Below are positions 27,027-56,595 of a stretch of DNA of 64,000 nucleotides, piece after piece. Under the pieces are notes generated by a model. It was not told the DNA's origin. It worked only from the letters and a program-made list of their open reading frames with translations, and ran no database searches. Position 1 is the stretch's first letter. Every line of letters begins with the position of its first letter. The stretch comes from Terriglobia bacterium (lineage in GTDB: Bacteria > Acidobacteriota > Terriglobia > JAJPHL01 > JAPKYU01), in NCBI GenBank assembly GCA_965206645.1, contig CBDBKE010000003.1, positions 384,001 to 448,000 of the forward strand. The letters are read 5' to 3'. Position numbers and translations under genes: made by a program.

Positions 27027-27132
27027 GAAGCTAGCTTATCCGAACACGGGCCCATTCGCAGACTGACATATCCCTGGTCCCGAAGGCATTGCCAAACTAG
27101 CAAATAGCTTCAGTGTGGGAACCGGCTTCCAA

Positions 27133-35310: not shown

Positions 35311-35377
35311 TGACCTGACCGGCACTTTTTGTACCAAGTGGAAAGAGAGAGAATCCACTTGAGGAGGAAGTGAGGTC

Positions 35378-35656
35378 ATGCCGACAAGGAGTTACAAGCC
35401 GGAGCAGATTGTAGCGGTGCTACGGCAGATAGAAGTGCAGATGGGGAACGGGAAGACTGCGCCCCAAGCCTGCAAAGAAGCTGGAATCCACACCCAAACC
35501 TACTACCGGTGGCGGAAGGAATACGGCGGGCTGAAGGTGGTGCAGGCAAAACGGCTAAAGGAGTTGGAGAAGGAAAACACGCGGCTGAAGCGGTTGGTAG
35601 CGGAGCTTTCTCTGGAGAAGCAGGTACTGCGGGATGTGGCACAGGGAAACTTCTGA
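35378..35656 (+). CDS. IS3 transposase OrfA
   Basis: HTH; TYYRWRKEYGGL..KRLKELEKENTRLKRLVA. Confidence 0.9.
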   Translation: MPTRSYKPEQIVAVLRQIEVQMGNGKTAPQACKEAGIHTQTYYRWRKEYGGLKVVQAKRLKELEKENTRLKRLVAELSLEKQVLRDVAQGNF

Positions 35657-36603
35657 GCCCTGAGCGGCGGCGTTGTGCGGTGGAGCGTGCGTGGGAGCAA
35701 CACGGGTTGTCGGAACGGCATGCCTGCCGGCTGCTGGGGCAATGGCGAGGGACACAACGATACGAGCCGATTCATCGGGTGGACGAGGATGCTCTGACCC
35801 GAGCGATCATTGCCCTGGGAGCGAAGTACGGGCGATATGGCTACCGGAGGATCACAGCGTTGCTGCGGAGTGCGGGCTGGGAAGTGGGCAAGGACCGGGT
35901 GCAGCGGATTTGGCGGCGGGAAGGGCTGAAAGTGCCGCAAAAACAAAGGCCGCGAGGACGGCTGTGGCTGAACGACGGTTCCTGTGTACGACTGAGGCCG
36001 GAGCGACCGAACCACGTGTGGAGCTACGACTTCATGAGTGCCAGAACGCACGAGGGGAGAACGCTGCGGCTGCTGACCTTGCTGGATGAGTACACGCGGG
36101 AATGCCTGGCGATCCGGGTGGAGCGGAGGATGGGCAGCCAACAAATCATTGAGGCGTTGTCGGACGTGATGTTGTGGCGAGGGATACCGGAACAGATTCG
36201 ATCCGACAATGGTCCCGAGTTCATCGCCAAACAACTGCGCCAGTGGTTGGCAAATCTAGGGACCGGGACACTGTACATCGAACCGGGCAGTCCCTGGGAG
36301 AACGGGTACTGCGAGAGTTTCAATGGGAAGCTGCGGGACGAATGCCTGAATGGAGAGATCTTTTACTCCTTGAAGGAGGCACAGGTGGTGATTGAACAGT
36401 GGAGGGTGCAATACAACACGGTGCGGCCGCACTCGGCGCTCGGCTATAGGCCCCCGGCGCCGGGGGCCTATAGAGCCTGTGTGGAAACTCGGTTTAGCTG
36501 GCTGGAAATCAAAAGGGATCATGATTCGCTCCAGAATTCTGGTGTTTCGATCTTCGCCGAGTCGCCGGTCCGGGAGTCTGCTGAACTAGCCTTCCTGATT
36601 TAG
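35653..36603 (+). CDS. IS3 transposase OrfB (C-terminus replaced by IS1182 sequence)
   Basis: WSYDF, RSDNGPEF, ENGYCESFNGKLRDECL. Confidence 0.88.
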   Translation: MSPERRRCAVERAWEQHGLSERHACRLLGQWRGTQRYEPIHRVDEDALTRAIIALGAKYGRYGYRRITALLRSAGWEVGKDRVQRIWRREGLKVPQKQRPRGRLWLNDGSCVRLRPERPNHVWSYDFMSARTHEGRTLRLLTLLDEYTRECLAIRVERRMGSQQIIEALSDVMLWRGIPEQIRSDNGPEFIAKQLRQWLANLGTGTLYIEPGSPWENGYCESFNGKLRDECLNGEIFYSLKEAQVVIEQWRVQYNTVRPHSALGYRPPAPGAYRACVETRFSWLEIKRDHDSLQNSGVSIFAESPVRESAELAFLI

Positions 36604-37866
36604 CTTCGGTTTGTTGCGCCACAGGCGGGTGAGGTTGAAGGCCGTTGCGGCCAGCGCGAACTCCACCGCGACCTTCTCCAGGCCCCGCCGCCGGAACTGC
36701 CGCATTCCACGCTGTTCTTTCAAAACCCCGATCACTGGTTCCACGATCGCCTTGCGCCGCTGATAAACCGCCCGGCCGGCCGGGTCGCGCAGCTTGCGTC
36801 GCATTCGCCGATGTTCCGGATGCCGTACAGCAGGTGCTCCGGGCGCGCGTTGGCCTCGGTTCAGTTCCCGCGCCAAGTTCGAGTCGGGCACATAGACGTC
36901 CAGGCCACGCTGGGCCAGTTCCACGATGGTCTCCAAGCAAAAGAAGCCGCTGTCGGCGCTGACCTTCTGCGGGCGTTCCCGGCAGCGCCGCTCGACCGCC
37001 TCCACCAGAGGGACCAGCGTCGCGTTGTCGGTGGCGTTTTGCCCCACGTGCTGCTCGACAATCAGATGATCTTCGCTGACCGCCACCTCCGCCGTGTAAC
37101 CCAGCGTGAATCCCTTGCGGTCGCGCAAAAACCGGCTGTCGGGATCGGTTTCCGAACGCCGCTTCAGCCCGCTTTTGCGCAACCGCTCCAGGCATCGCGG
37201 GATTTCTTCCAGCCGCTTCTCCAGCGCTGCCATCTGCTTGCCGCTCAGTTGCTGGCCAGCCGCTTCCTCGCAGGACTGCGTGTCACATTGTTTCTGCCAG
37301 CGACGAATCTGCCGCCGAATTTTGGCTCGCTCTGCCCTCAACTTGGCCACCGTCTCCACCCGGTCCTGCGAGGCGTTGGCCGCCACCCGCGTCGAGTCCA
37401 TGGCCACGTGTCCCAGCCGCCCCATCCCCAGCGACCGCGCCAACTCCACCACCTGTGTGAACAGATCGTTCAGGGCACGGGCGTGCCGCGTCCGAAACTG
37501 GTTCAGCGTCCAAAAGTCCGGCCCCGCTCCGGCCGCCAGATAACGGAACGCCAGGTCCTCCCGCACCCGCTGTTCCAGACGGCGGGCCGAGGTCACGCCC
37601 AGCGCGTAGGCATACAGCCACACCTTCAGCAACAGCGCCGGATGATAGGCCGGGCGGCCTTCTTCCACGTAGCCCTGCTCAAACGCACTCAGTTCCAGCC
37701 GCTCCACGACTTGGTGCACAAAAAAACAGATGTGATCTTCTCCCAGCACCTCCCGCACGCTGGGCGGTAGCAGATACGCTTGCTCCGGGTTGTAGGTCAA
37801 GAATTTCATCGCGCCCCCTTAAGGCGCATTATACGTGACTCGCAAGAGCGGTTTTCACACAGACTC
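36473..37866 (-). mobile_element. IS1182 family element, copy A (1394 bp)
   Basis: IRs gagcctgtgtggaaac / gttttcacacagactc; TATA duplication. Confidence 0.92.
36586..37809 (-). CDS. IS1182 family transposase
   Basis: GRPAYHP.LLLK...YAY..G..S.R.LE, MDST, TDPDSR, ADSGF, Y.RRK.IVEPV.G. Confidence 0.92.
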   Translation of the reverse strand: MKFLTYNPEQAYLLPPSVREVLGEDHICFFVHQVVERLELSAFEQGYVEEGRPAYHPALLLKVWLYAYALGVTSARRLEQRVREDLAFRYLAAGAGPDFWTLNQFRTRHARALNDLFTQVVELARSLGMGRLGHVAMDSTRVAANASQDRVETVAKLRAERAKIRRQIRRWQKQCDTQSCEEAAGQQLSGKQMAALEKRLEEIPRCLERLRKSGLKRRSETDPDSRFLRDRKGFTLGYTAEVAVSEDHLIVEQHVGQNATDNATLVPLVEAVERRCRERPQKVSADSGFFCLETIVELAQRGLDVYVPDSNLARELNRGQRAPGAPAVRHPEHRRMRRKLRDPAGRAVYQRRKAIVEPVIGVLKEQRGMRQFRRRGLEKVAVEFALAATAFNLTRLWRNKPKLNQEG

Positions 37867-37958
37867 TATAGCCCTCCCCTGCCACTGAAACCAGTTTCAC
37901 AGCCCCAGGCTGCGATGTAAACTCTCACTACGGTTGGTACAAAAAATCGGTCTGGTCA

Positions 37959-38010
37959 GTCGAATCAAACGTAAGGCTGGCCGTACAGCGATCACCGTCA
38001 TCGTAGTTAA
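37959..38010 (-). pseudogene. Third fragment of the disrupted secreted protein (NYDDGDRCTASLTFDS)
   Basis: In frame with 39669-40121 once IS1380 and one GTTAA are removed. Confidence 0.7.
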
Positions 38011-39668
38011 CCCGGATTTCCGTTTTGAAACTCCAAAGCTAACCTTATACTGACCTCCGACGCCAATATTTATGCCGGTTCCAGCGTCAATACAGCTTCC
38101 GGAGGTAGAAACCGAGTGGGTGAGAGGCAAAATCAGCCCTTTCAGTTCTCTTTCAATGCTGCATTGAAGGTCGATTTCCAGGGGTCGCGGGTTACTTCCG
38201 ACGGCGGCCTGATCCTCGTGCGCGAATCAGACGAACATTTGGGATTCGGAGAACTCATCAAACAGCACTTGGCCGATCCTCGGAGAAAGAACACACGGTT
38301 GCCCTTTGCTGACCTCCTGCGCCAGTCCGTGTACAGCCGCTTGGCGGGTTACGAAGATATGAATGACGCGGAACGGCTCTCTCAAGATCCGACGTTCCGG
38401 CTGATCGGTTCAGAAAAGATCTGGGAGCGAGGAGCCGCGTTGACTTCCCGGCTGCAATCGTTCGAGACAGAACTACTGACGCAAGATGAGAACCTGGCTG
38501 GTTTGGCAGCGATCAACCGGGATTTAATCGCCAGGGCGGAAGCTATGGATTCCCCGCAACGGGTGGTGCTGGACATGGACTCGACCGAGATTCCGGTCTA
38601 CGGCCAGCAGGAGCAGAGTGCCTACAACGGGCATTTCGAGTCGAGCTGCTATCACCCGTTGTTGCTGTTCAATCGCGAGGGTGACTGTCTGGCGGCCAAG
38701 CTGCGACCGGGCAACGTGCACAGCGCCGAGGACTGGAAAGAACTTCTCCTGCCGGAGATCGAGCGGCAGCAGCAGCTGGGCAAGGAAGTGGTGTTTCGTG
38801 CCGACGCGGCCTTTGCCAAGCCGGAGATTTACGAGGCTCTGGAGGAGCGGGAGGTAAAGTACGCCATCCGCATCCCGGCTAACGACAGCCTACAGCGGGA
38901 CATTGAGGAGTTGCTGACTCGGCCGGTGGGGAGACCCAGCAAGAAGCCGTTGGTGGAGTTCAAGGGCTTTCTATACCAAGCGGCCAGTTGGAAGACAGCC
39001 CGCAGGGTGGTGGCCAAGGTGGAGCATCATCCAGGGGAGCTGTTCCCGCGAGTAGGGTTTATCGTTACGAACTTGACTCTGCCAAGTCGGGCGGTGATGC
39101 GGTTTTACAACAAGCGGGGGACAGCGGAGCAGTGGATCAAAGAAGGAGAGCAAGCAGTGAAGATGACGCGGCTCAGTTGTCACCGGTTCCGGTCGAACGA
39201 GGTCCGGCTGTGGCTCACCATCATTGCCTATAATCTCGGCAACCTGTGGCGGCGACTGGTGCTGCCACAGAGAATCGGGAACTGGTCCCTGACGAGCTTG
39301 CAACAGCGGTTGGTGAAAACGGGAGGACGGCTGGTGAAACATGCGCGATATTACTGGCTTTTGCTGGCCGAAGGGCACTTGAGCCGGAGGCTGTTCAGCA
39401 GCATGCTGCGAACGATCTCGGCACTGCCGCTGCCAGACGGCTAGCGAACCGGGAGAGAGGGTAATTTTAGGTGCTCAGAAGTGGTCGGGCCGGATAAGTG
39501 TCAGCGGCGCGGCAGGCTGGGCAGGCGAACCCCGCACAGCGACTCCGAAGAACAGCCAAAATGTGCCGCACTACCACCTCAAAGAGGCCAGAGCTGTTTG
39601 CGGTTGACACGACAGGGTACGAGGCATAGCTTTTCGGGTGAAGAGGAAGCTCGAAATGGAAATTCCGG
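38011..39668 (+). mobile_element. IS1380 family element, copy 2 (1658 bp)
   Basis: Same IRs as copy 1; 5-bp TSD GTTAA at 38006-38010 and 39669-39673. Confidence 0.93.
38116..39444 (+). CDS. IS1380 family transposase
   Basis: Protein identical to 27238..28566. Confidence 0.93.
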   Translation: MGERQNQPFQFSFNAALKVDFQGSRVTSDGGLILVRESDEHLGFGELIKQHLADPRRKNTRLPFADLLRQSVYSRLAGYEDMNDAERLSQDPTFRLIGSEKIWERGAALTSRLQSFETELLTQDENLAGLAAINRDLIARAEAMDSPQRVVLDMDSTEIPVYGQQEQSAYNGHFESSCYHPLLLFNREGDCLAAKLRPGNVHSAEDWKELLLPEIERQQQLGKEVVFRADAAFAKPEIYEALEEREVKYAIRIPANDSLQRDIEELLTRPVGRPSKKPLVEFKGFLYQAASWKTARRVVAKVEHHPGELFPRVGFIVTNLTLPSRAVMRFYNKRGTAEQWIKEGEQAVKMTRLSCHRFRSNEVRLWLTIIAYNLGNLWRRLVLPQRIGNWSLTSLQQRLVKTGGRLVKHARYYWLLLAEGHLSRRLFSSMLRTISALPLPDG

Positions 39669-40121
39669 GTTAAACGTTAACGTTCCCGTATTCGAACCTG
39701 TGTTCCGATAGGTATAGCTTCCCGTATAGGTGTCCGCGCCCTCGGTTTCCCTGAAACGCCCAGGACTGACAAAATCCACATAGGCTGTCGGGTAGTTCGT
39801 CGCTCCCCGTTTACCAACGAAGAGATCGTTGAACGCAGCTTCGTCTGCCGGAGCGAACATCTCGCCCGTAACTCGCGCCAAGCTCGTCCAGATCGGCTGG
39901 GTCACAAACGCTCCTTCGTCATGCGCTTTAAAGCCAATCCCTGTTATGGAGCCAGGCAACAGAGGATCTCCGCGAATTTCAAGCGTTCCCTCCGACGTAG
40001 ACGTACAGGAAAGAACGTCCCTTAACAGGAACGCTCGGTGATGCCTGGCACCGAAGTTCATTGTGGCTCTACAGAGTTCGGCCCCGTCAAAGCCGGTGCG
40101 CGCAATCAGTGTCACATCCTG
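39669..40121 (-). pseudogene. Middle fragment of the disrupted secreted protein (inverted)
   Basis: QDVTLIARTG...NTGTLTFN; joined to 35310 through the GTCT TSD. Confidence 0.8.
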
Positions 40122-40163
40122 AGACTGACCAGACCGATTTTTTGTACCAACCGTAGTGAGAGT

Positions 40164-41070
40164 TTACATCGCAGCCTGGGGCTGGGGCAAAACGCCACCG
40201 ACAACGCGACGTGAAACTGGTTTCAGTGGCAGGGGAGGGCTATAGGCCCCCGGCGCCGGGGGCCTATAGGCGAGCGCCGAGTGCGGCCGCACCGTGTTGT
40301 ATTGCACCCTCCACTGTTCAATCACCACCTGTGCCTCCTTCAACGAGTAGAAGATCTCTCCATTCAGGCATTCGTCCCGCAGCTTCCCATTGAAACTCTC
40401 GCAGTACCCGTTCTCCCAGGGACTGCCCGGTTCGATGTACAGTGTCCCGGTCCCTAGATTTGCCAACCACTGGCGCAGTTGTTTGGCGATGAACTCGGGA
40501 CCATTGTCGGATCGAATCTGTTCCGGTATCCCTCGCCACAACATCACGTCCGACAACGCCTCAATGATTTGTTGGCTGCCCATCCTCCGCTCCACCCGGA
40601 TCGCCAGGCATTCCCGCGTGTACTCATCCAGCAAGGTCAGCAGCCGCAGCGTTCTCCCCTCGTGCGTTCTGGCACTCATGAAGTCGTAGCTCCACACGTG
40701 GTTCGGTCGCTCCGGCCTCAGTCGGCCTCAGTCGTACACAGGAACCGTCGTTCAGCCACAGCCGTCCTCGCGGCCTTTGTTTTTGCGGCACTTTCAGCCC
40801 TTCCCGCCGCCAAATCCGCTGCACCCGGTCCTTGCCCACTTCCCAGCCCGCACTCCGCAGCAACGCTGTGATCCTCCGGTAGCCATATCGCCCGCACTTC
40901 GCTCCCAGGGCAATGATCGCTCGGGTCAGAGCATCCTCGTCCACCCGATGAATCGGCTCGTATCGTTGTGTCCCTCGCCATTGCCCCAGCAGCCGGCAGG
41001 CATGCCGTTCCGACAACCCGTGTTGCTCCCACGCACGCTCCACCGCACAACGCCGCCGCTCAGGGCTCAG
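40164..41070 (-). pseudogene. IS3 OrfB, frameshifted
   Basis: cggcctcagt duplicated at 40713-40732. Confidence 0.85.
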
Positions 41071-41345
41071 AAGTTTCCCTGTGCCACATCCCGCAGCACC
41101 TGCTTCTCCAGAGAAAGCTCCGCTACCAACCGCTTCAGCCGCGTGTTTTCCTTCCCCAACTCCTTTAGCCGTTTTGCCTGCACCACCTTCAGCCCGCCGT
41201 ATTCCTTCCGCCACCGGTAGTAGGTTTGGGTGTGGATTCCAGCTTCTTTGCAGGCTTGGGGCGCAGTCTTCCCGTTCCCCATCTGCACTTCTATCTGCCG
41301 TAGCACCGCTACAATCTGCTCCGGCTTGTAACTCCTTGTCGGCAT
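41067..41345 (-). CDS. IS3 transposase OrfA
   Basis: Near identical to 35378..35656. Confidence 0.9.
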   Translation of the reverse strand: MPTRSYKPEQIVAVLRQIEVQMGNGKTAPQACKEAGIHTQTYYRWRKEYGGLKVVQAKRLKELGKENTRLKRLVAELSLEKQVLRDVAQGNF

Positions 41346-41412
41346 GACCTCACTTCCTCCTCAAGTGGATTCTCTCTCTTTCCACTTGGTACAAAAAGTG
41401 CCGGTCAGGTCA

Positions 41413-46979: not shown

Positions 46980-48208
46980 TGCCAGCTCAACCGGTCGATG
47001 CAACACAAGCGTTAAATCGTTCTGCCGGAGTTTCAAACTCCAGCGTCTGACGGGGCCGTTCGTTCAGCTGACGTGCCACCTTGTTCAGATGCGCCTGAGA
47101 GTGCACCGACAAGTCCGTTCCCTTGGGGAAGTACTGTCGGAGTAGACCGTTGGTGTTCTCATTCGAACCGCGCTGCCATGGACTCTGAGGATCACAGAAG
47201 TATACGTCAATGTCGGTCGCCAACGTGAACCGTCGATGCTCGGCGAGCTCCAGGCCTCGATCCCAAGTCAGAGATTTGTACAGTTCCGTCGGCAGCTTCT
47301 TCGCGTGCTTGATGAGCGCCGACACGACCGTCTCCGTTTTCTTGCTGGATACTTTCGTAAGCATCACGTAGCGCGTATGACGTTCGACCAGAGTCGCAAT
47401 GTGGCTGTTCTTCGATCCGGACAGCAGATCGCCTTCCCAATGACCGGGCACGGCACGATCTTCGACCGAGGCCGGGCGCTCACGGATCGATACGATGTCG
47501 GTGATCTGTCCTCGTCCATGGCCTCTCAGACTTGCATGTCGGGATCGACGAATCGTCCGCTTTGACCGCAGATGCTGCATCAGCTCTGCCTTCAGCGCAC
47601 CGCGGGCTTGAACAAACAGGCTGCGGTAGATGGTCTCGTGAGACACGTGATAGGACGGATCCTTCGGATAGGCTCGTTTCAGCCAGCTGGCGATCTGCTC
47701 AGGCGACCAGTTTATGCTGAGCTTTCTGGCCACTACCCGTCGTAGTTGTGGATGCTTGACCAGCTGACACCGCTTCGGCCGGCGGGCCCTCTCCCCGGCT
47801 TGCTCATCGGCCTCCGCTGCTCGATAGTCATTATCGCCGCCATTCCGCCGAATCTCCCGGCTCACCGTCGATGGTGAGCGACCCAGCAACCCGGCGATGG
47901 ATCGTATCGATTGATGTGCCGCAATGCCTCGAGAGATCTCTTCGCGCTCCGACAACGTCAGTGCCCAACATGAACGGCGTGGTGGCCGAGGACGGATGCC
48001 TCCGTACGGAGCAAGCTGATGGTAAACAGACGATGGCTGCTTACAAAACACTCGTCCAATCGACTTGAGCGACTCCCCTCGTTTCCACCGATCCCACACC
48101 TCCTCCAGTTCCGCCAGCGTGTAACCGCGACGAGCTCTTTGCTTCATCCGCATACACTCCACCTCCTCCTTTCAAGGCAAAGTGTTGCGTCGATGGGTTG
48201 AGACCACC
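46980..48208 (-). mobile_element. IS30 family element
   Basis: About 27-bp IRs (ctcaacc..tcga.gcaacac); 2-bp CT flanks. Confidence 0.88.
46987..48147 (-). CDS. IS30 family transposase
   Basis: WSPEQI, VSHETIY, GHWEGDL, SLTWDRG, PWQRGSNENTNGLLRQYFPKG. Confidence 0.95.
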   Translation of the reverse strand: MKQRARRGYTLAELEEVWDRWKRGESLKSIGRVFCKQPSSVYHQLAPYGGIRPRPPRRSCWALTLSEREEISRGIAAHQSIRSIAGLLGRSPSTVSREIRRNGGDNDYRAAEADEQAGERARRPKRCQLVKHPQLRRVVARKLSINWSPEQIASWLKRAYPKDPSYHVSHETIYRSLFVQARGALKAELMQHLRSKRTIRRSRHASLRGHGRGQITDIVSIRERPASVEDRAVPGHWEGDLLSGSKNSHIATLVERHTRYVMLTKVSSKKTETVVSALIKHAKKLPTELYKSLTWDRGLELAEHRRFTLATDIDVYFCDPQSPWQRGSNENTNGLLRQYFPKGTDLSVHSQAHLNKVARQLNERPRQTLEFETPAERFNACVASTG

Positions 48209-48283: not shown

Positions 48284-48424
48284 TCACGGTAAATGATCAG
48301 CCTGGAAATATTTGGGTCGCAACTGGCACAGATTACAAACCCGAAGAACGAAGCGATCCACGACTGGATGCCTCAACTCTTCCAGCAGGTAGAGCGCCAA
48401 GCTGGGTCGTCAGGGATCGAAGCC
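48284..48424 (-). pseudogene. Degenerate cas1-like fragment
   Basis: [39 protein letters not shown]. Confidence 0.6.
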
Positions 48425-51400
48425 ACGCGTCGACGGCAGGGTTGCCAAAGCCGGGGGCCAACTGGTCTTTCTTTTGTCGAAGGACGGCGGCAATTTGATC
48501 CTTGACGAATAGCTGCTTCAATTCGGCGCTTCTTCCGGCTCTGCTTGCAAAACTTCTTGTCCGCAACATTCTCATGTCTCGCCCTTTCGCCATCCGTGCC
48601 CTTGTTGCCTGGTCTCCAGCCCAGCGTTTCACCCACACATCGGTCTGAGCCTCTTGGATCGCCTTCAGGTGGCCGATCAACTCATCGTACAGCGCTTCGA
48701 GTTCCGCGATCTGCTCGGCAACCTCTTGGCGCACCCGTTCCGGATCGCGTTGGGGCGCCGCTTGAGTCTGAGACGATCTATGCACCGCTGGGCGGCCCAC
48801 GCCCCAGCGATAGTTGAGCCGCACGTAGATGTTAGTGCCGTTGAACCCGAAGGGCGAGAACTGGCCGTAGTAATTGCCGACCGTCCGGATGCCAAACTCG
48901 TTCACGTCGGGGTAAGTATTCAGCAAGTTCTCCCCGCCGATGGCCAGAGCAACGTTTTTCCCGAGCGGGATCCCGAGCTCGACATCGAGCAGCGCCTTGC
49001 CGCCATAGGACGGGTACAGCCACGACTCGGACACGACACCCAAGTCAGCCGCGTTCCGCCCGTCCTCGCTGTCCCAGAACTGACCGAAGTAGTTCAAGCG
49101 GCCCATGAGATTCCATCGGCCGGCGTCGTGATTGACGTTGAAGCTCCACCGCGTGTTCGGCAGCCCCCGTTCCAGCGTAGTGATGCGGAACTGGTCGATC
49201 ACGGAAGATTCGATGTTCTTGACCTCTGTATCCGTGTAGTTGTAGATCGCACTGAACGTCGTGCGCCCCTTCACCAGCGTCGAGATCAGGTCGACGCCCT
49301 GGGTCGTCGTCGAAAAGTCGTTCAAGAAGAACCGGAACACGGGGAAATTCCGTGCTTCTGGAATCCCCTCCGCCAGCAACGTCTCGATCTCGTCATCCGA
49401 CAATTTGATTTCCTGGGCCAGGGCGACGCGGTCGTCGATGTCGACCCGGAAATAGTCCGCGGTGAAGGTGAACGGGCCCTTCTCGAGGACGACGCCCGCG
49501 CTGTAGTTGCGCGATGTCTCCGGTTGGAGCTGGCCTCCGCCCCGCGCCATGGCCACGGCTGAGGTAGCCGGAACCACACCTTGGTTGGTCAGTTGCCCGC
49601 CGATAAAGGCGGTCGTCACGTTGAACGCGTTCTGTTGCCCCGGCGTCGGCGCCCGAAACCCGGTGCTGACGGCGCCGCGCAGCGCGGCCATGCCGGTCAG
49701 CTTGAGGCGCCCGGAGACCTTGTAGTTGACCGTCTTGCCGAAGTCGTCGAAGTTCTCGAACCGGACGGCCGTGCCGAGCGTCCACCGGCCCGGGTCGCTG
49801 AACTCAACGTCGCCATAGACGGCGATGTTGCTACGGCTCCAGGTTCCCGCCGTCGTGTCGGCCCGGTAGCCGTTGAAGCCGTTCGAACCGGAACTGAAGC
49901 CCTGCGCGGCATACGGACCGATCTCCCACGACGGCTGATCGCCGGCGCCAATCGTGAACTCCTCCCTCCTCCACTCCGCGCCGGCGGCCAAGTGCACGAG
50001 ATCGTTGAGGGGGTAGGAAACGTCGAAGTTGAGATTGGTTTCCTTCTGCCGATAGACGCCGGGCCGGAACGACGTCGGCGTGTCGAAACCGAGCGACGCA
50101 TTGACCGTATCGAAAATGAACTGATCGATCTCGCTGGTGCCGATGCTGGCGCTCGCGTCCCAGGTGAAGCCGTTGCTGGCGAACCCGCGCAGACCGCCGA
50201 CCAGCGAGTAGTCGATCAGATCCCCGCCGAACTGCGGAGTGAATCCTCCAGGAAACCGGTTGTGGAGAGTGAAGCAGTTCGGGTCGGCCTCGACTGCGGA
50301 GAGAGCGCCTGCGTCGGGGACGTTGTCGACGATCGGGATGATGGGGCAGCCGCCGGCGCCCGGCTCGCGTCCGGGAGGAGGAACCTTGCTGGTGGGCGCG
50401 GTATCGGCCCAGACCCGGTCGCCGACGAGCAGCGTACGGTTTCCGTCGACCACGGGACCGCGAAAAACCCCGCCCCGCGTGTGTGGATTCCGGAAGTAAA
50501 AGCCCCCGGTCACCTTGCGGGACGCGTAGTTGCCGTGACCGTAGAGTTGATAACGATCGTCGAACAGATGGCCGAAGTTTGCGAACAGCTTGAAGTCGTG
50601 GTTGATTCTCGGCGATCCCCAAACCTGCGCCGTGTCGCGCAGATTCGTATTGCCCGCGTTGATGATGTCCGACGCGTCCTGGCGCTGGATGGCGCGGTTG
50701 GTCGGCTCGGCGGTGCCGTACTCCATGCTGATGTTGCCGAAACCGTTCGCTCCCAGCGGCACCCCGACGTTGCCGGCTACAGAAAACGTCCGGCCGCGTC
50801 CGCCGATTCCGTTACACGAGTGCTTGATGTCACCGATGATGCCCGACCCGCACGTCTCCGGGTTCCCCGAATTGGCATCGAAGAAGCCCCCGGTTTGGAC
50901 TTCCAGGCTGCCTCCCGAGGGATCGTTCTTCAGTTGAAAGTTCATGACTCCGGCGATGGCGTCCGAGCCGTATTGCGCCGCCGCGCCGTCGCGCAGCACC
51001 TCAACCTGCCGAATGGCAATCGATGGAATGATGGAGAGGTCCGGTCCCTGCGAGCCGTCGGCGATGCCATTTCCCAGCCAAGTGATGACCGCCGAGCGGT
51101 GGCGGCGCTTTCCGTTGACTAGGACCAGCGTGTGGTCGGGCGCTAGGTTGCGCAAGTTAGCCGGACGGACGACGGTCCCCGCATCGCTGATCGGCTGAGT
51201 GCTGATGTTGAAGGAGGGGATGACAGTCCGCAACTGGGATACCAAATCCCTGCTACCCTGTCTAGCGAGGTCCTCGGCACGGATGACGTCCACGGGCACG
51301 GTGGACGCGGTCACCGACCGTGGCTCGGCGCGGCTACCGACGACCACGACGGACTGGGCGACGGCGGCCAATTCGAGCGTAAAGTTTCGCAGGACCGATT

Positions 51401-51695
51401 GGCCGGCAATCAGTTCGACGTCATCGGCGATGCCAGTCTCGAAGCCGGGATTCTCAGCCGTAATCGTGTAGACCCCGGGCTCTAGAGTCAATTCGTATGC
51501 GCCGTCGGCATCCGTCGAACCGGTCACCTCGGCTCCGGTGGCGTTGTTGGTCGCCGTTATTTCCGCGCCTGTGATGACTGAGCCGGAATCATCGGTTACC
51601 TCTCCGCGCAAGGTAGCCGTTTGCTGAGCGTACGCGACTCCGGAAACCCCAACCAGGAGCAACATGATTATGACAACAAGACTTCTTTGGAACAT
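48333..51695 (-). CDS. TonB-dependent receptor with N-terminal carboxypeptidase-like domain and atypical C-terminal extension
   Basis: [56 protein letters not shown]. Confidence 0.93.
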
Positions 51696-51732
51696 GGTCA
51701 ACTCCCAAACATAGAGATAATGAACAGCTCAC

Positions 51733-52562: not shown

Positions 52563-52629
52563 TGACCTGACCTGCACTTTTTGTACCAAGTGGAAAGAGA
52601 GAGAATCCACTTGAGGAGGAAGTGAGGTC

Positions 52630-52908
52630 ATGCCGACAAGGAGTTACAAGCCGGAGCAGATTGTAGCGGTGCTACGGCAGATAGAAGTGCAGATGGGGAA
52701 CGGGAAGACTGCGCCCCAAGCCTGCAAAGAAGCTGGAATCCACACCCAAACCTACTACCGGTGGCGGAAGGAATACGGCGGGCTGAAGGTGGTGCAGGCA
52801 AAACGGCTAAAGGAGTTGGAGAAGGAAAACACGCGGCTGAAGCGGTTGGTAGCGGAGCTTTCTCTGGAGAAGCAGGTGCTGCGGGATGTGGCACAGGGAA
52901 ACTTCTGA
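52630..52908 (+). CDS. IS3 transposase OrfA
   Basis: Protein identical to 35378..35656. Confidence 0.9.
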   Translation: MPTRSYKPEQIVAVLRQIEVQMGNGKTAPQACKEAGIHTQTYYRWRKEYGGLKVVQAKRLKELEKENTRLKRLVAELSLEKQVLRDVAQGNF

Positions 52909-53762
52909 GCCCTGAGCGGCGGCGTTGTGCGGTGGAGCGTGCGTGGGAGCAACACGGGTTGTCGGAACGGCATGCCTGCCGGCTGCTGGGGCAATGGCGA
53001 GGGACACAACGATACGAGCCGATTCATCGGGTGGACGAGGATGCTCTGACCCGAGCGATCATTGCCCTGGGAGCGAACTACGGGCGATATGGCTACCGGA
53101 GGATCACAGCGTTGCTGCGGAGTGCGGGCTGGGAAGTGGGCAAGGACCGGGTGCAGCGGATTTGGCGGCGGGAAGGGCTGAAAGTGCCGCAAAAACAAAG
53201 GCCGCGAGGACGGCTGTGGCTGAACGACGGTTCCTGTGTACGACTGAGGCCGGAGCGACCGAACCACGTGTGGAGCTACGACTTCATGAGTGCCAGAACG
53301 CACGAGGGGAGAACGCTGCGGCTGCTGACCTTGCTGGATGAGTACACGCGGGAATGCCTGGCGATCCGGGTGGAGCGGAGGATGGGCAGCCAACAAATCA
53401 TTGAGGCGTTGTCGGACGTGATGTTGTGGCGAGGGATACCGGAACAGATTCGATCCGACAATGGTCCCGAGTTCATCGCCAAACAACTGCGCCAGTGGTT
53501 GGCAAATCTAGGGACCGGGACACTGTACATCGAACCGGGCAGTCCCTGGGAGAACGGGTACTGCGAGAGTTTCAATGGGAAGCTGCGGGACGAATGCCTG
53601 AATGGAGAGATCTTCTACTCGTTGAAGGAGGCACAGGTGGTGATTGAACAGTGGAGGGTGCAATACAACACGGTGCGGCCGCACTCGGCGCTCGGCTATA
53701 GGCCCCCGGCGCCGGGGGCCTATAGAGTCTGTGTGAAAACCGCTCTTGCGAGTCACGTATAA
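52905..53762 (+). CDS. IS3 transposase OrfB (C-terminus replaced by IS1182 sequence)
   Basis: DDE motifs as in copy 1. Confidence 0.88.
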   Translation: MSPERRRCAVERAWEQHGLSERHACRLLGQWRGTQRYEPIHRVDEDALTRAIIALGANYGRYGYRRITALLRSAGWEVGKDRVQRIWRREGLKVPQKQRPRGRLWLNDGSCVRLRPERPNHVWSYDFMSARTHEGRTLRLLTLLDEYTRECLAIRVERRMGSQQIIEALSDVMLWRGIPEQIRSDNGPEFIAKQLRQWLANLGTGTLYIEPGSPWENGYCESFNGKLRDECLNGEIFYSLKEAQVVIEQWRVQYNTVRPHSALGYRPPAPGAYRVCVKTALASHV

Positions 53763-55118
53763 TGCGCCTTAAGGGGGCGCGATGAAATTCTTGACCTACA
53801 ACCCGGAGCAAGCGTATCTGCTACCGCCCAGCGTGCGGGAGGTGCTGGGAGAAGATCACATCTGTTTTTTTGTGCACCAAGTCGTGGAGCGGCTGGAACT
53901 GAGTGCGTTTGAGCAGGGCTACGTGGAAGAAGGCCGCCCGGCCTATCATCCGGCGCTGTTGCTGAAGGTGTGGCTGTATGCCTACGCGCTGGGCGTGACC
54001 TCGGCCCGCCGTCTGGAACAGCGGGTGCGGGAGGACCTGGCGTTCCGTTATCTGGCGGCCGGAGCGGGGCCGGACTTTTGGACGCTGAACCAGTTTCGGA
54101 CGCGGCACGCCCGTGCCCTGAACGATCTGTTCACACAGGTGGTGGAGTTGGCGCGGTCGCTGGGGATGGGGCGGCTGGGACACGTGGCCATGGACTCGAC
54201 GCGGGTGGCGGCCAACGCCTCGCAGGACCGGGTGGAGACGGTGGCCAAGTTGAGGGCAGAGCGAGCCAAAATTCGGCGGCAGATTCGTCGCTGGCAGAAA
54301 CAATGTGACACGCAGTCCTGCGAGGAAGCGGCTGGCCAGCAACTGAGCGGCAAGCAGATGGCAGCGCTGGAGAAGCGGCTGGAAGAAATCCCGCGATGCC
54401 TGGAGCGGTTGCGCAAAAGCGGGCTGAAGCGGCGTTCGGAAACCGATCCCGACAGCCGGTTTTTGCGCGACCGCAAGGGATTCACGCTGGGTTACACGGC
54501 GGAGGTGGCGGTCAGCGAAGATCATCTGATTGTCGAGCAGCACGTGGGGCAAAACGCCACCGACAACGCGACGCTGGTCCCTCTGGTGGAGGCGGTCGAG
54601 CGGCGCTGCCGGGAACGCCCGCAGAAGGTCAGCGCCGACAGCGGCTTCTTTTGCTTGGAGACCATCGTGGAACTGGCCCAGCGTGGCCTGGACGTCTATG
54701 TGCCCGACTCGAACTTGGCGCGGGAACTGAACCGAGGCCAACGCGCGCCCGGAGCACCTGCTGTACGGCATCCGGAACATCGGCGAATGCGACGCAAGCT
54801 GCGCGACCCGGCCGGCCGGGCGGTTTATCAGCGGCGCAAGGCGATCGTGGAACCAGTGATCGGGGTTTTGAAAGAACAGCGTGGAATGCGGCAGTTCCGG
54901 CGGCGGGGCCTGGAGAAGGTCGCGGTGGAGTTCGCGCTGGCCGCAACGGCCTTCAACCTCACCCGCCTGTGGCGCAACAAACCGAAGCTAAATCAGGAAG
55001 GCTAGTTCAGCAGACTCCCGGACCGGCGACTCGGCGAAGATCGAAACACCAGAATTCTGGAGCGAATCATGATCCCTTTTGATTTCCAGCCAGCTAAACC
55101 GAGTTTCCACACAGGCTC
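53725..55118 (+). mobile_element. IS1182 family element, copy B (1394 bp)
   Basis: Reverse complement of copy A; TATA duplication. Confidence 0.92.
53782..55005 (+). CDS. IS1182 family transposase
   Basis: Protein identical to 36586..37809. Confidence 0.92.
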   Translation: MKFLTYNPEQAYLLPPSVREVLGEDHICFFVHQVVERLELSAFEQGYVEEGRPAYHPALLLKVWLYAYALGVTSARRLEQRVREDLAFRYLAAGAGPDFWTLNQFRTRHARALNDLFTQVVELARSLGMGRLGHVAMDSTRVAANASQDRVETVAKLRAERAKIRRQIRRWQKQCDTQSCEEAAGQQLSGKQMAALEKRLEEIPRCLERLRKSGLKRRSETDPDSRFLRDRKGFTLGYTAEVAVSEDHLIVEQHVGQNATDNATLVPLVEAVERRCRERPQKVSADSGFFCLETIVELAQRGLDVYVPDSNLARELNRGQRAPGAPAVRHPEHRRMRRKLRDPAGRAVYQRRKAIVEPVIGVLKEQRGMRQFRRRGLEKVAVEFALAATAFNLTRLWRNKPKLNQEG

Positions 55119-55210
55119 TATAGCCCTCCCCTGCCACTGAAACCAGTTTCACAGCCCCAGGCTGCGATGTGAACTCTCACTACGGTTGGTACAAAAAATC
55201 GGTCTGGTCA

Positions 55211-55408
55211 GGACGACCTCAGAAACCAAAGCACTTGAAGCGCGGCACGATCTTCCCTGTGAAGTGCACACGGGCCGAGTTGCGCCGATTCAAGGCGTTG
55301 GCTTCCTCGGTGCGGGTTCCACTTGCAGAACTGATGCGGGAAGGAGCACGGTTCTACGCTCGGCGGCTAAAGAAGAGAAAAGGCGAGTCGAGAAAGGAGG
55401 AACGATGA
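55211..55408 (+). pseudogene. Small DNA-binding protein (RHH-like), 5'-truncated by IS3
   Basis: GRP...IFPVKCTRAELRRFKALA....PLAELMRE; stop overlaps the integrase ATG. Confidence 0.5.
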
Positions 55409-56595
55409 AGACTCGCCGTAGTTTCCAAAATGGCTATGTGACAGATCGTAGGGGTAAGTGGATTATTCGCTGGAGGGAGCGCGTAGTGAAGGACGGGAAG
55501 CTGGCGTGGGCACACCGTCTCGAGACGCTCAGGTCTACCAGTTCGATGACCAAAGGCGAAGCCAGAAAAATCCTGCTAGAACGGCTGGACGAACTCAATC
55601 CGCTTGCCCATTTCCCGGCTCGGGAAACAACGCTGGAGCAACTGGTGAGACGTTGGGAGCAGGAATCGTTGCCCAACAAATCACTGCCCACACAAGCAGG
55701 ATACCGGAAGCTGCTTAAGAAGCACATCCTTGCCGGGGATGGGTTGGCGCTGGTATGTTTGCGGCCACCTGATCTTTCTCCGGGGCTGGTTCAACGTTTT
55801 GTCAGCCGCAAGACTGAAGCGGGGCTTTCGCCACAGACGGTGCGTAACATTTATCACCTGCTGCGCTCGATCTTGCGCTTCGGCATACGTCTCAAGCTAC
55901 TCAGGGAAAACCCATCAAACGGTGTAGAACTGCCTAAGAAGGTGGGGCCTCGTCAAGAGCGGGCTGTGTACACACCGGAGCAAGTCAGCGCCATTTTGAC
56001 GGCGTTCGAGCAACAGGACGATTTACTGTCCCGAACTCTAATTCTGTGCGTCTACTTTACGGGTCTTCGCCGCTCAGAATTATGCGGTTTACGGTGGCAA
56101 GACGCAGACCTCCAAAGGAAGGAGATTCGACCGCAGCGGGCGGTATGGAACGGGCTGGAATGCGACCTGAAGAGCGCAGCCAGCTATTCTGCCTTACCTA
56201 TCCCTGAAATTCTCAGGGATGCCCTCCTCGAACTGCGGCTACGTAGCAGGTTTGCGAATCCCTGTGACCCGGTCTTCGTGGGGCCCGGTGGCAAGCCTAT
56301 GATCCTCGCGAATTGGGTGAGACGAAAGTTGCGTCCTGTTCTTCGACAACTGGCTTTGCCCATGGGTGCTCTTCACAGTTTCCGGCATCCCCGGAGCACT
56401 CGGCTGAATTTCCTTGGCGTTGACCCGCGTACGCTTCAGGCACTAAATCGCCATGCGGATGTGGGGGTGACGTTCAAGCATTACACGCACCTGGTTCCAG
56501 GGGTCCAACGGCAGGCTGTGGATCTCATGGAGGCGGAGTTTCTGGCAGCCCGCGGGAACTCGTGCTCCACTGGTGCTCAAGAGAGGTTGGTTTAG
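55405..56595 (+). CDS. Tyrosine recombinase/integrase
   Basis: AGGAGG RBS; TGLRRSELCGLRW, LKS, HSFRH, RHAD....HYTH. Confidence 0.92.
   Translation: MKTRRSFQNGYVTDRRGKWIIRWRERVVKDGKLAWAHRLETLRSTSSMTKGEARKILLERLDELNPLAHFPARETTLEQLVRRWEQESLPNKSLPTQAGYRKLLKKHILAGDGLALVCLRPPDLSPGLVQRFVSRKTEAGLSPQTVRNIYHLLRSILRFGIRLKLLRENPSNGVELPKKVGPRQERAVYTPEQVSAILTAFEQQDDLLSRTLILCVYFTGLRRSELCGLRWQDADLQRKEIRPQRAVWNGLECDLKSAASYSALPIPEILRDALLELRLRSRFANPCDPVFVGPGGKPMILANWVRRKLRPVLRQLALPMGALHSFRHPRSTRLNFLGVDPRTLQALNRHADVGVTFKHYTHLVPGVQRQAVDLMEAEFLAARGNSCSTGAQERLV

Follow-up and report, generated by a model that had tools for sequence, protein, structure and literature searches.

The insertion sequences at the locus and the insert in IS3 copy 2

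The window, that is, the whole stretch of 64,000 nucleotides analysed here, carries three copies of an insertion sequence of the IS3 family. The family was assigned by a match to NF033516 (237.9 bits, with a cut-off of 160) and by the domains HTH_Tnp_1, HTH_21, rve and rve_3, orfA coding for the HTH part and orfB for the rve DDE core. Copy 1 (35311-37958, plus strand) and copy 3 (52563-55210, plus strand) are both split by an element of the IS1182 family and consist of the parts 35311-36472 and 37867-37958, and 52563-53724 and 55119-55210, respectively. Copy 2 (40126-41412, minus strand) is not invaded by IS1182; it comprises 1287 nt, namely 1250 nt plus an insert of 27 nt and a duplication of 10 nt. 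In the following, C1 to C4 designate the contigs of the genome, K designates coordinates of the IS1182 element, and K+ and K- designate its two orientations.

Copy 2 is part of a cluster of insertion sequences extending from 35311 to 41412, in which the IS3::IS1182 composite of copy 1 (35311-37958) is followed by an insertion sequence with a DDE_Tnp_1_4 transposase (open reading frame 38116-39444; repeated at 27131 and 38009) and then by copy 2. At the other end of the region, an open reading frame of the phage integrase family (55186-56595) adjoins IS3 copy 3.

Read in the sense of IS3, copies 1 and 3 contain the uninserted junction ...CAGTTTCAC|AGCCCCAGG..., whereas copy 2 reads ...CAGTTTCAC GTCGCGTTGTCGGTGGCGTTTTGCCCC AGCCCCAGG..., with a net gain of 27 nt; on the window, positions 40180-40215 read ggctggggcaaaacgccaccgacaacgcgacgtgaaactgg. 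The insertion was placed at 40185-40211 (minus strand), with K547-573 of IS1182 as its source; since the position can be shifted by 1 nt, 40184-40210 is equally possible. The exact identity to IS1182 extends over 29 nt (40183-40211, minus strand; K546-574), which comprises the insertion and an overlap of 1 nt at each junction. The window contains the 27-mer at 37018-37044 (minus), 40185-40211 (plus) and 54547-54573 (plus), three occurrences against an expectation of 0 from 100 shuffles. For the 29-mer 40183-40211, 17 exact matches were identified in the genome, 16 of them in IS1182 copies and one at the site in copy 2.

The preliminary description of this DNA had reported the 27-nt difference between copy 2 and copies 1 and 3, and an exact match of the insert and its two flanking bases to the IS1182 transposase gene. 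Both were borne out, the former by the comparison of the copies and the latter genome-wide. Three further details given there also hold. The insert is locally in frame and adds nine amino acids (RRVVGGVLP); it is separated by 29 nt, given before as about 30 bp, from the empty IS1182 target TATA (40241-40244), which lies inside a palindrome; and its orientation is K+ on the IS3 sense strand. Since the IS1182 transposase ORF is located on K- (K114-1337), an IS3 sense transcript over the insert would be antisense to this ORF, as had been stated.

Apart from the insert, copy 2 differs from the reference copy by five SNPs and by a private 10-nt tandem duplication (CGACTGAGGC x2; 40725-40734, minus strand), which shifts the reading frame of orfB ahead of the rve catalytic core. 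Because the duplication splits orfB, Pfam identifies HTH_21 and rve of copy 2 in two separate frames. With its orfB frameshifted by the duplication, copy 2 is a dead copy, and the in-frame position of the insert is therefore without consequence for a transposase. In the 3' part of orfB, the palindrome CTATAGGCCCCCGGCGCCGGGGGCCTATAG (40240-40269) holds the empty target TATA; it comprises 30 nt in copy 2 and 34 nt in most copies, due to a G>C SNP.

The closest IS3 relative of copy 2 is a copy invaded by IS1182 (C3:859477-862093), in which IS1182 has the same K+ orientation as the insert. The base 518G is common to these two copies alone among 64 copies, and 1133C is also shared. This faintly suggests an earlier occupation of copy 2 by IS1182; the link consists of two SNPs, and the orientation would match in 50% of the cases by chance. 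Near the left end of the IS1182 inside C3:859477-862093, stretches of 2, 10 and 8 nt are missing, and deletions of 1-3 nt are clustered at K429-496 and K652. These deletions may represent either error-prone repair synthesis or consensus errors.

IS1182 and its hairpin target

The IS1182 element in copy 1 comprises 1394 bp (36473-37866, plus strand, K+), with its transposase ORF at 36586-37809 on the minus strand; the one in copy 3 is located at 53725-55118 in K- orientation and contains the 29-mer at 54545-54573. Membership in the IS1182 family was established by a match to NF033551 (321.3 bits, with a cut-off of 270), and the transposase matches the Pfam families DUF772, DDE_Tnp_1 and DDE_Tnp_1_6. 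The element ends in 16-bp terminal inverted repeats, GAGCCTGTGTGGAAAC and GAGTCTGTGTGAAAAC, and is flanked by a TATA target duplication, as expected for the family, some members of which also have palindromic targets (PMC5678879).

In nearly all cases in the genome, and in both orientations, IS1182 has inserted at the right-hand TATA of a perfect palindrome of 34 nt that belongs to the 3' part of IS3 orfB. In this palindrome context, 14 left and 9 right IS1182 junctions were identified genome-wide, and the few exceptions are located at other GC-rich palindromes. In the window, the TATA sites are 36469-36472, 37867-37870 and 53721-24, in addition to the empty site 40241-44 of copy 2. IS1182 is close to a specialist parasite of IS3 in this genome.

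For the direction of transfer, 80 loci encoding relatives of the transposase were compared. The closest relatives are encoded by metagenome-assembled genomes of Acidobacteriota, Terriglobia and 'Candidatus Acidiferrales'. At the homologous position of the transposase gene, the 29-mer is present exactly in one locus (L001) and with six substitutions in six others (L002-L004, L025, L060 and L066), as expected for a diverging coding sequence. Since the transposase genes of the relatives hold the 29-mer and 70 of 71 IS3 tails lack the insert, IS1182 is clearly the donor. The 29-mer is native to IS1182, from where it moved into IS3.

Distribution of the insert among the IS3 copies of the genome

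The genome comprises 4.4 Mb in four contigs and contains about 100 IS3 copies or fragments and about 15 near-full IS1182 copies, with identities of 98-100%. When one mismatch was allowed, 70 uninserted junctions were identified in the IS3 tails genome-wide and a single one with the insert. Among 64 near-full-length left parts of IS3, 46 continue into an uninvaded tail by the exact motif and 4 more with one SNP; 11 meet an IS1182 end (3 in K+ and 8 in K- orientation), and 3 are aberrant. In total, 58 uninvaded IS1182 target sites are present, and all 57 besides copy 2 are without the insert. The statement that copy 2 is the only IS3 copy without IS1182 therefore applies to the window and is wrong beyond it, and the link between being uninvaded and being tagged vanishes genome-wide. 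The insert was not found in the IS3 copies of the same-genus genomes that were searched. In none of the relatives searched was an orthologous locus of copy 2 with its flanks identified; these flanks consist of repeats or are unmatched.

A direct repeat of at least 4 nt at the inferred ends was present in only 6 of 65 paired IS3 copies. This suggests either an extensive shuffling of flanks by recombination between copies, or that the inferred ends are off.

Further IS1182-derived patches near the target

IS3 matches were chained, and each aberrant tail was annotated against IS3 and IS1182. Four clean IS1182-derived patches of 27, 29, 60 and 64 nt were identified in the genome. The 27-nt patch is the insert of copy 2 (40185-40211; K547-573, K+), 29 nt from the TATA. 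The 60-nt patch (C4:1604480-1604539) is derived from K49-108 in K+ orientation and located 2 nt from the TATA, and the 64-nt patch (C1:364306-364369) is derived from K868-931 (match K867-932), inverted, and located about 143 nt upstream of the TATA. The 29-nt patch (C4:834283-834313; K497-527) is located beyond the end of another IS3 copy, at a distance of about 77 nt from this end and about 165 nt downstream of the TATA. Compared to the IS3 reference, no IS3 bases were lost or gained at the 27-, 60- and 64-nt patches. The 29-nt patch is likewise a clean insertion, being absent from the orthologous stretch of a same-genus genome. None of the three patches besides the one in copy 2 occupies the position of the copy 2 insert, which is present in 1 of 71 IS3 tails.

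In all four patches, the length of the IS1182 match exceeds the net insertion by exactly 2 nt (29/27, 62/60, 66/64 and 31/29). For the three patches within IS3, one extra matching base was present at six of six junctions; when the junctions are treated separately, the probability of this by chance is about 2 x 10^-4. The patches differ from one another in orientation and in position, flanking repeats are absent, and none of the four is farther than about 165 nt from the target TATA of IS1182 at the palindrome foot in IS3.

Four further IS3 tails are rearranged at the target site. In C4:1200790-1202075, a 29-nt duplication surrounds a 9-nt remnant and forms a snap-back palindrome. In C4:649062-650382, IS1182 nt 4-48 are followed by a restart of IS3 38 nt upstream. 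In C2:323286-324603, a 72-nt IS3 piece that ends inside the TATA was re-inserted about 100 nt upstream, and the complex tail C2:446534-448150 contains about 290 nt of inverted IS1182.

In a self-comparison of the whole genome, isolated pieces of 24-150 nt from multi-copy elements were screened. This resulted in 104 clusters, which were curated by eye, and most of which were set aside as by-products of the alignment of IS3 tails. Six IS1182-derived pieces were obtained, five of which lie no more than about 165 nt from a target TATA in IS3; such target neighbourhoods, about 72 sites of 340 nt each, constitute about 0.6% of the 4.4-Mb genome. The sixth piece, of 45 nt (C2:833063-833106), consists of the IS3 palindrome and the first 16 nt of the right end of IS1182 in unique, non-IS surroundings and appears by its composition to be a copy of an IS3-IS1182 junction. 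In the same screen, no internal IS3 pieces were identified outside IS3, although IS3 copies are several-fold more numerous than IS1182 copies. For a 31-nt piece of another element (C2:734957), there is no spanning orthologue. An 89-nt istB piece (C4:2034226) was rejected as a clean patch, since it abuts the end of another element and is hence a remnant.

Support from the assembly and from sequencing runs

A repeat-rich genome assembled from long reads of metagenome type, with about 100 IS3 and about 15 full IS1182 copies of 98-100% identity, is difficult for consensus building, and the insert might be an artefact of assembly or polishing. In four sequencing runs represented by Logan contigs, none of the pieces listed for 39650-40450 bridges a junction of the insert; contigs of this kind cannot show absence. 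Of the four runs, only X15, possibly the source sample, has depth in the two bins that span the insert (40163-40189 and 40190-40216). X1 and X18 have no depth in either bin and X17 has none in the first, and in one X17 contig, a loose end at 40211 has the sequence without the insert. In scans of metagenomes, the insert junction had 0 matches and so did the uninserted control junction; the scanned collection is therefore considered to be without this IS3.

Possible consensus errors are also suggested by the clustered 1-3-nt deletions in the IS1182 copy C3:859553-860928. Errors of long reads are, however, indels of 1-3 nt and not exact copies of 27 nt with a clean return, and the 6 nt that the two elements share at the junction are far fewer than any assembler word size. 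There are three more clean patches, of which one is located in unique DNA, and copy 2 has private changes besides the insert, as a real locus that has diverged should have. An artefact is for these reasons very unlikely.

Origin of the insert

The preliminary description had proposed a templated insertion via TGGGGC microhomology or a scar of repair after loss of IS1182. The microhomology does not account for the product. Pairing of TGGGGC with GCCCCA in register was rejected, since it predicts a single copy of TGGGGC and the product has two; for the same reason, the usable overlap at the junctions amounts to 1 nt per side. A simple deletion scar of an IS1182 that had been located in place was also rejected, since the patch is not colinear with an IS3::IS1182 composite. 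In kind, the templated insertion or IS1182-linked repair scar is supported by the clean copy, the 1-nt overlaps and the series of patches at the target.

The nearest donor of the 29-mer is the IS1182 of copy 1 (37018-37046, minus strand), which is located 3.1 kb from the insert and inverted relative to it. This is the geometry of a strand switch within a replication fork. Independent of IS1182 transposition, a nascent strand could have switched to the lagging template 3.1 kb behind the fork and back, and the 27 nt would have been copied from the inverted IS1182 of copy 1. The palindrome, located 29 nt from the insert, would stall forks and promote such switching. For other organisms, there is ample documentation of short inverted copies that arise by template switching, and the 29-nt patch at C4:834283 can be read with microhomologies of 5 nt and 2 nt. 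On the other hand, a distance of 3.1 kb is long compared to the short-range switches described, and in the present arrangement the nearest donors are about 7 kb away for C4:1604480 and more than 50 kb away for C1:364306. The overlaps are 1 nt per side although the 6-nt GCCCCA was available, which remained unused in register. Template switching also gives no account of why all validated clean patches are derived from IS1182 and none from the commoner IS3 or from the flanks. It is rather unlikely to have produced the insert.

It is quite probable that the insert is a non-functional scar, formed when IS1182 DNA was copied or captured into a decaying IS3 copy during the repair of a break or during later gap filling. 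Two features expected of filler DNA at a repaired break were found, namely an insert identical to DNA from another place in the cell (16 IS1182 copies) and very short microhomology at the junctions. The break, its cause and the enzymes are deduced from these end products, and the following sequence of events is proposed. A recurrent process would be tied to the activity of IS1182 at the TATA, which forms the 3' foot of the GC-rich palindrome in IS3. Excision of IS1182 from the target, or its attempted entry, would leave the IS3 DNA broken, with IS1182 DNA held adjacent. After resection of the broken IS3 ends, a repair polymerase or an end-joining system could use a stretch of IS1182 as template or filler, with about 1 nt of pairing on entry and on exit. 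The expected outcome is a clean short patch with no target bases lost, at a variable distance from the restored TATA.

In copy 2, the TATA and the 29 nt next to it are intact. A break at the TATA would therefore require an additional step, that is, precise repair at the break and a patch at the boundary between resection and gap filling. The ends would have been rejoined precisely at the 4-nt TATA, and the patch would have arisen at the point, 29-30 nt away, at which gap filling reached the resected strand. A simple copying across the IS3-IS1182 junction fails as an explanation, because the sources are internal (K546-574 and K867-932) and not at the ends of IS1182. Alternatively, the palindrome alone could act as a fragile site, without IS1182 activity.

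Among the genes for repair proteins, an intact Ku is encoded at C2:196811-197347 (158.9 bits). The gene for LigD (C2:449516-450802; positions 1090-2376 of locus L090) retains only the C-terminal part of the ligase and the Prim-Pol domain; it is cut by an IS21 element, whose istB is located directly upstream of the remnant. Neither the ligase adenylation domain PF01068 nor the LigD phosphoesterase domain PF13298 was found in the genome, which is rated 97.9% complete. Because the adenylation domain of LigD is absent and the gene is cut by IS21, canonical joining by Ku and LigD may not work in this organism. The sole reverse transcriptase is the RT-maturase ORF (465 aa) of a single group II intron (C4:454900-456870; L091), whose RNA domains were identified with Rfam (RF02003 with 86.8 bits and RF00029 with 41.5 bits).

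Readings as a functional tag

In other insertion sequences, transposases can be subject to antisense control, for example by RNA-OUT of IS10. For copy 2, the insert might likewise be functional, either since an IS3 transcript with 29 complementary nucleotides regulates IS1182 or since the insert protects copy 2 from invasion, as a memory of the parasite. The orientation of the insert antisense to the transposase mRNA, its spacer-like length of 27-29 nt and the uninvaded state of copy 2 are consistent with this. The complementarity, however, is located in the middle of the ORF (K546-574; ORF K1337-114) and not at the translation start near K1337, the region over which antisense RNAs of transposases typically pair. 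The insert is present in one of 71 IS3 tails, its carrier copy is frameshifted, and 57 other targets are empty without it. The sister patches are sense as often as antisense, vary between 27 and 64 nt and are scattered, one being located outside IS3. There are no flanking repeats, no intact Cas1 was found, and the allele was not found in the relatives searched. A regulatory or protective role is extremely unlikely, and the memory or antisense tag put forward in the preliminary description is contradicted by the 70 of 71 uninserted tails, the dead carrier, the heterogeneous sister patches and the lack of an intact Cas1.

Like a CRISPR spacer, the insert is a piece of a mobile element of 27-29 nt that is stored in host DNA near a palindrome. 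In contrast to spacer acquisition, there is no repeat duplication at the junctions, no array and no intact Cas1, and the patches vary in length and are scattered in position. The only Cas1 match in the genome is a fragment at 48293-48415 on the minus strand (41 residues, 28.5 bits) with an in-frame TGA, covering 41 of 283 profile positions. Ectopic integration by Cas1-Cas2 was rejected on these grounds, that is, the lack of flanking repeats and the fragmentary sole Cas1 match with its stop. The Cas1-like fragment is located between a gene for an IS30 transposase (46987-48162) and a gene for a TonB-dependent receptor (48333-51701).

In a wider form, IS3 copies containing IS1182 pieces would act as traps, and their antisense transcripts would serve as a heritable, sequence-specific brake on IS1182. 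The IS3 traps would then be a bacterial analogue of a piRNA cluster, with the 27-nt insert as one antisense unit, a possibility to which hardly any probability is assigned.

Comparison to known systems

Excision footprints and abortive gap repair have been described for other transposons, like the filler DNA of maize Ac/Ds and the internal deletions of Drosophila P elements. The IS3 tails resemble these in that pieces of the element are located at or near its former site, together with local duplications. Classical footprints are located exactly at the excision site and keep the ends of the element, whereas in copy 2 the TATA is restored and the patch is derived from the middle of the element and located 29 nt away.

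With templated insertions of polymerase-theta-type or SD-MMEJ repair, and with their bacterial analogues (the group II intron-like reverse transcriptase G2L4; bioRxiv 10.1101/2022.03.14.484287), the patches share the exact copying of a template and very short terminal pairing. The template of such insertions usually lies within tens of nucleotides of the break, whereas in the present case it is another element. Snap-back synthesis, another feature of such repair, is suggested by one of the rearranged IS3 tails. The only reverse transcriptase of the present genome belongs to a standard group II intron, whose RNA is also present, and is not a free-standing repair enzyme.

In Sinorhizobium meliloti, bacterial NHEJ has been shown to capture DNA fragments at chromosomal breaks (PMC6379672, in which the capture of Ty1 cDNA and mitochondrial DNA at yeast breaks is cited). 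As in these captures, the patches consist of short DNA from elsewhere in the cell with overlaps of 0-2 nt, the donor is an abundant mobile element, and Ku is encoded. The differences are that no target bases were lost or gained at the four clean patches, that the inserts are very short (27-64 nt), that the ligase domain of LigD is missing and that the break is deduced and not induced.

For the target choice of IS1182, a related system is IS1272, a member of the IS1182 family that is reported to attack stem-loop targets (PMC5678879). Here, also, IS1182 inserts at the foot of a palindrome. The stem-loop is reportedly replaced by IS1272 without a target duplication; in the present genome, the palindrome is kept and TATA is duplicated.

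A defence memory would have been remarkable; the evidence points the opposite way. The insert is most likely a scar left by the repair of a break, and a modest curiosity. The patches can be regarded as a small natural record of how broken DNA is patched in a bacterium, in an Acidobacteriota genome laden with insertion sequences. They are clean fillers of 27-64 nt from a single transposon source, all near the hairpin target of that transposon. Natural filler DNA is well known in eukaryotes and scarce in bacteria. The patch series could serve as a footprint of past IS1182 activity or excision, and it exemplifies a transposon whose copies are found almost exclusively within another one.

Fragments of IS1182 in this genome and in relatives

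In the IS1182 elements of relatives, decay fragments and weak matches of 26-31 nt (E ~0.01) were the only pieces identified, and there were no patches. In the present genome, IS1182 fragments end repeatedly at K579-596 with an overlap of 12-15 nt, as in C1:274677-275271, C1:311244-312061 and C3:149087-149867. This looks like the insertion of a third element into IS1182, which would have been followed by recombination. The site at K579-596 is separated by 8 nt from the sequence that was the source of the 27-nt patch, and the same fragment ends are also present several times in a same-genus genome (G003).
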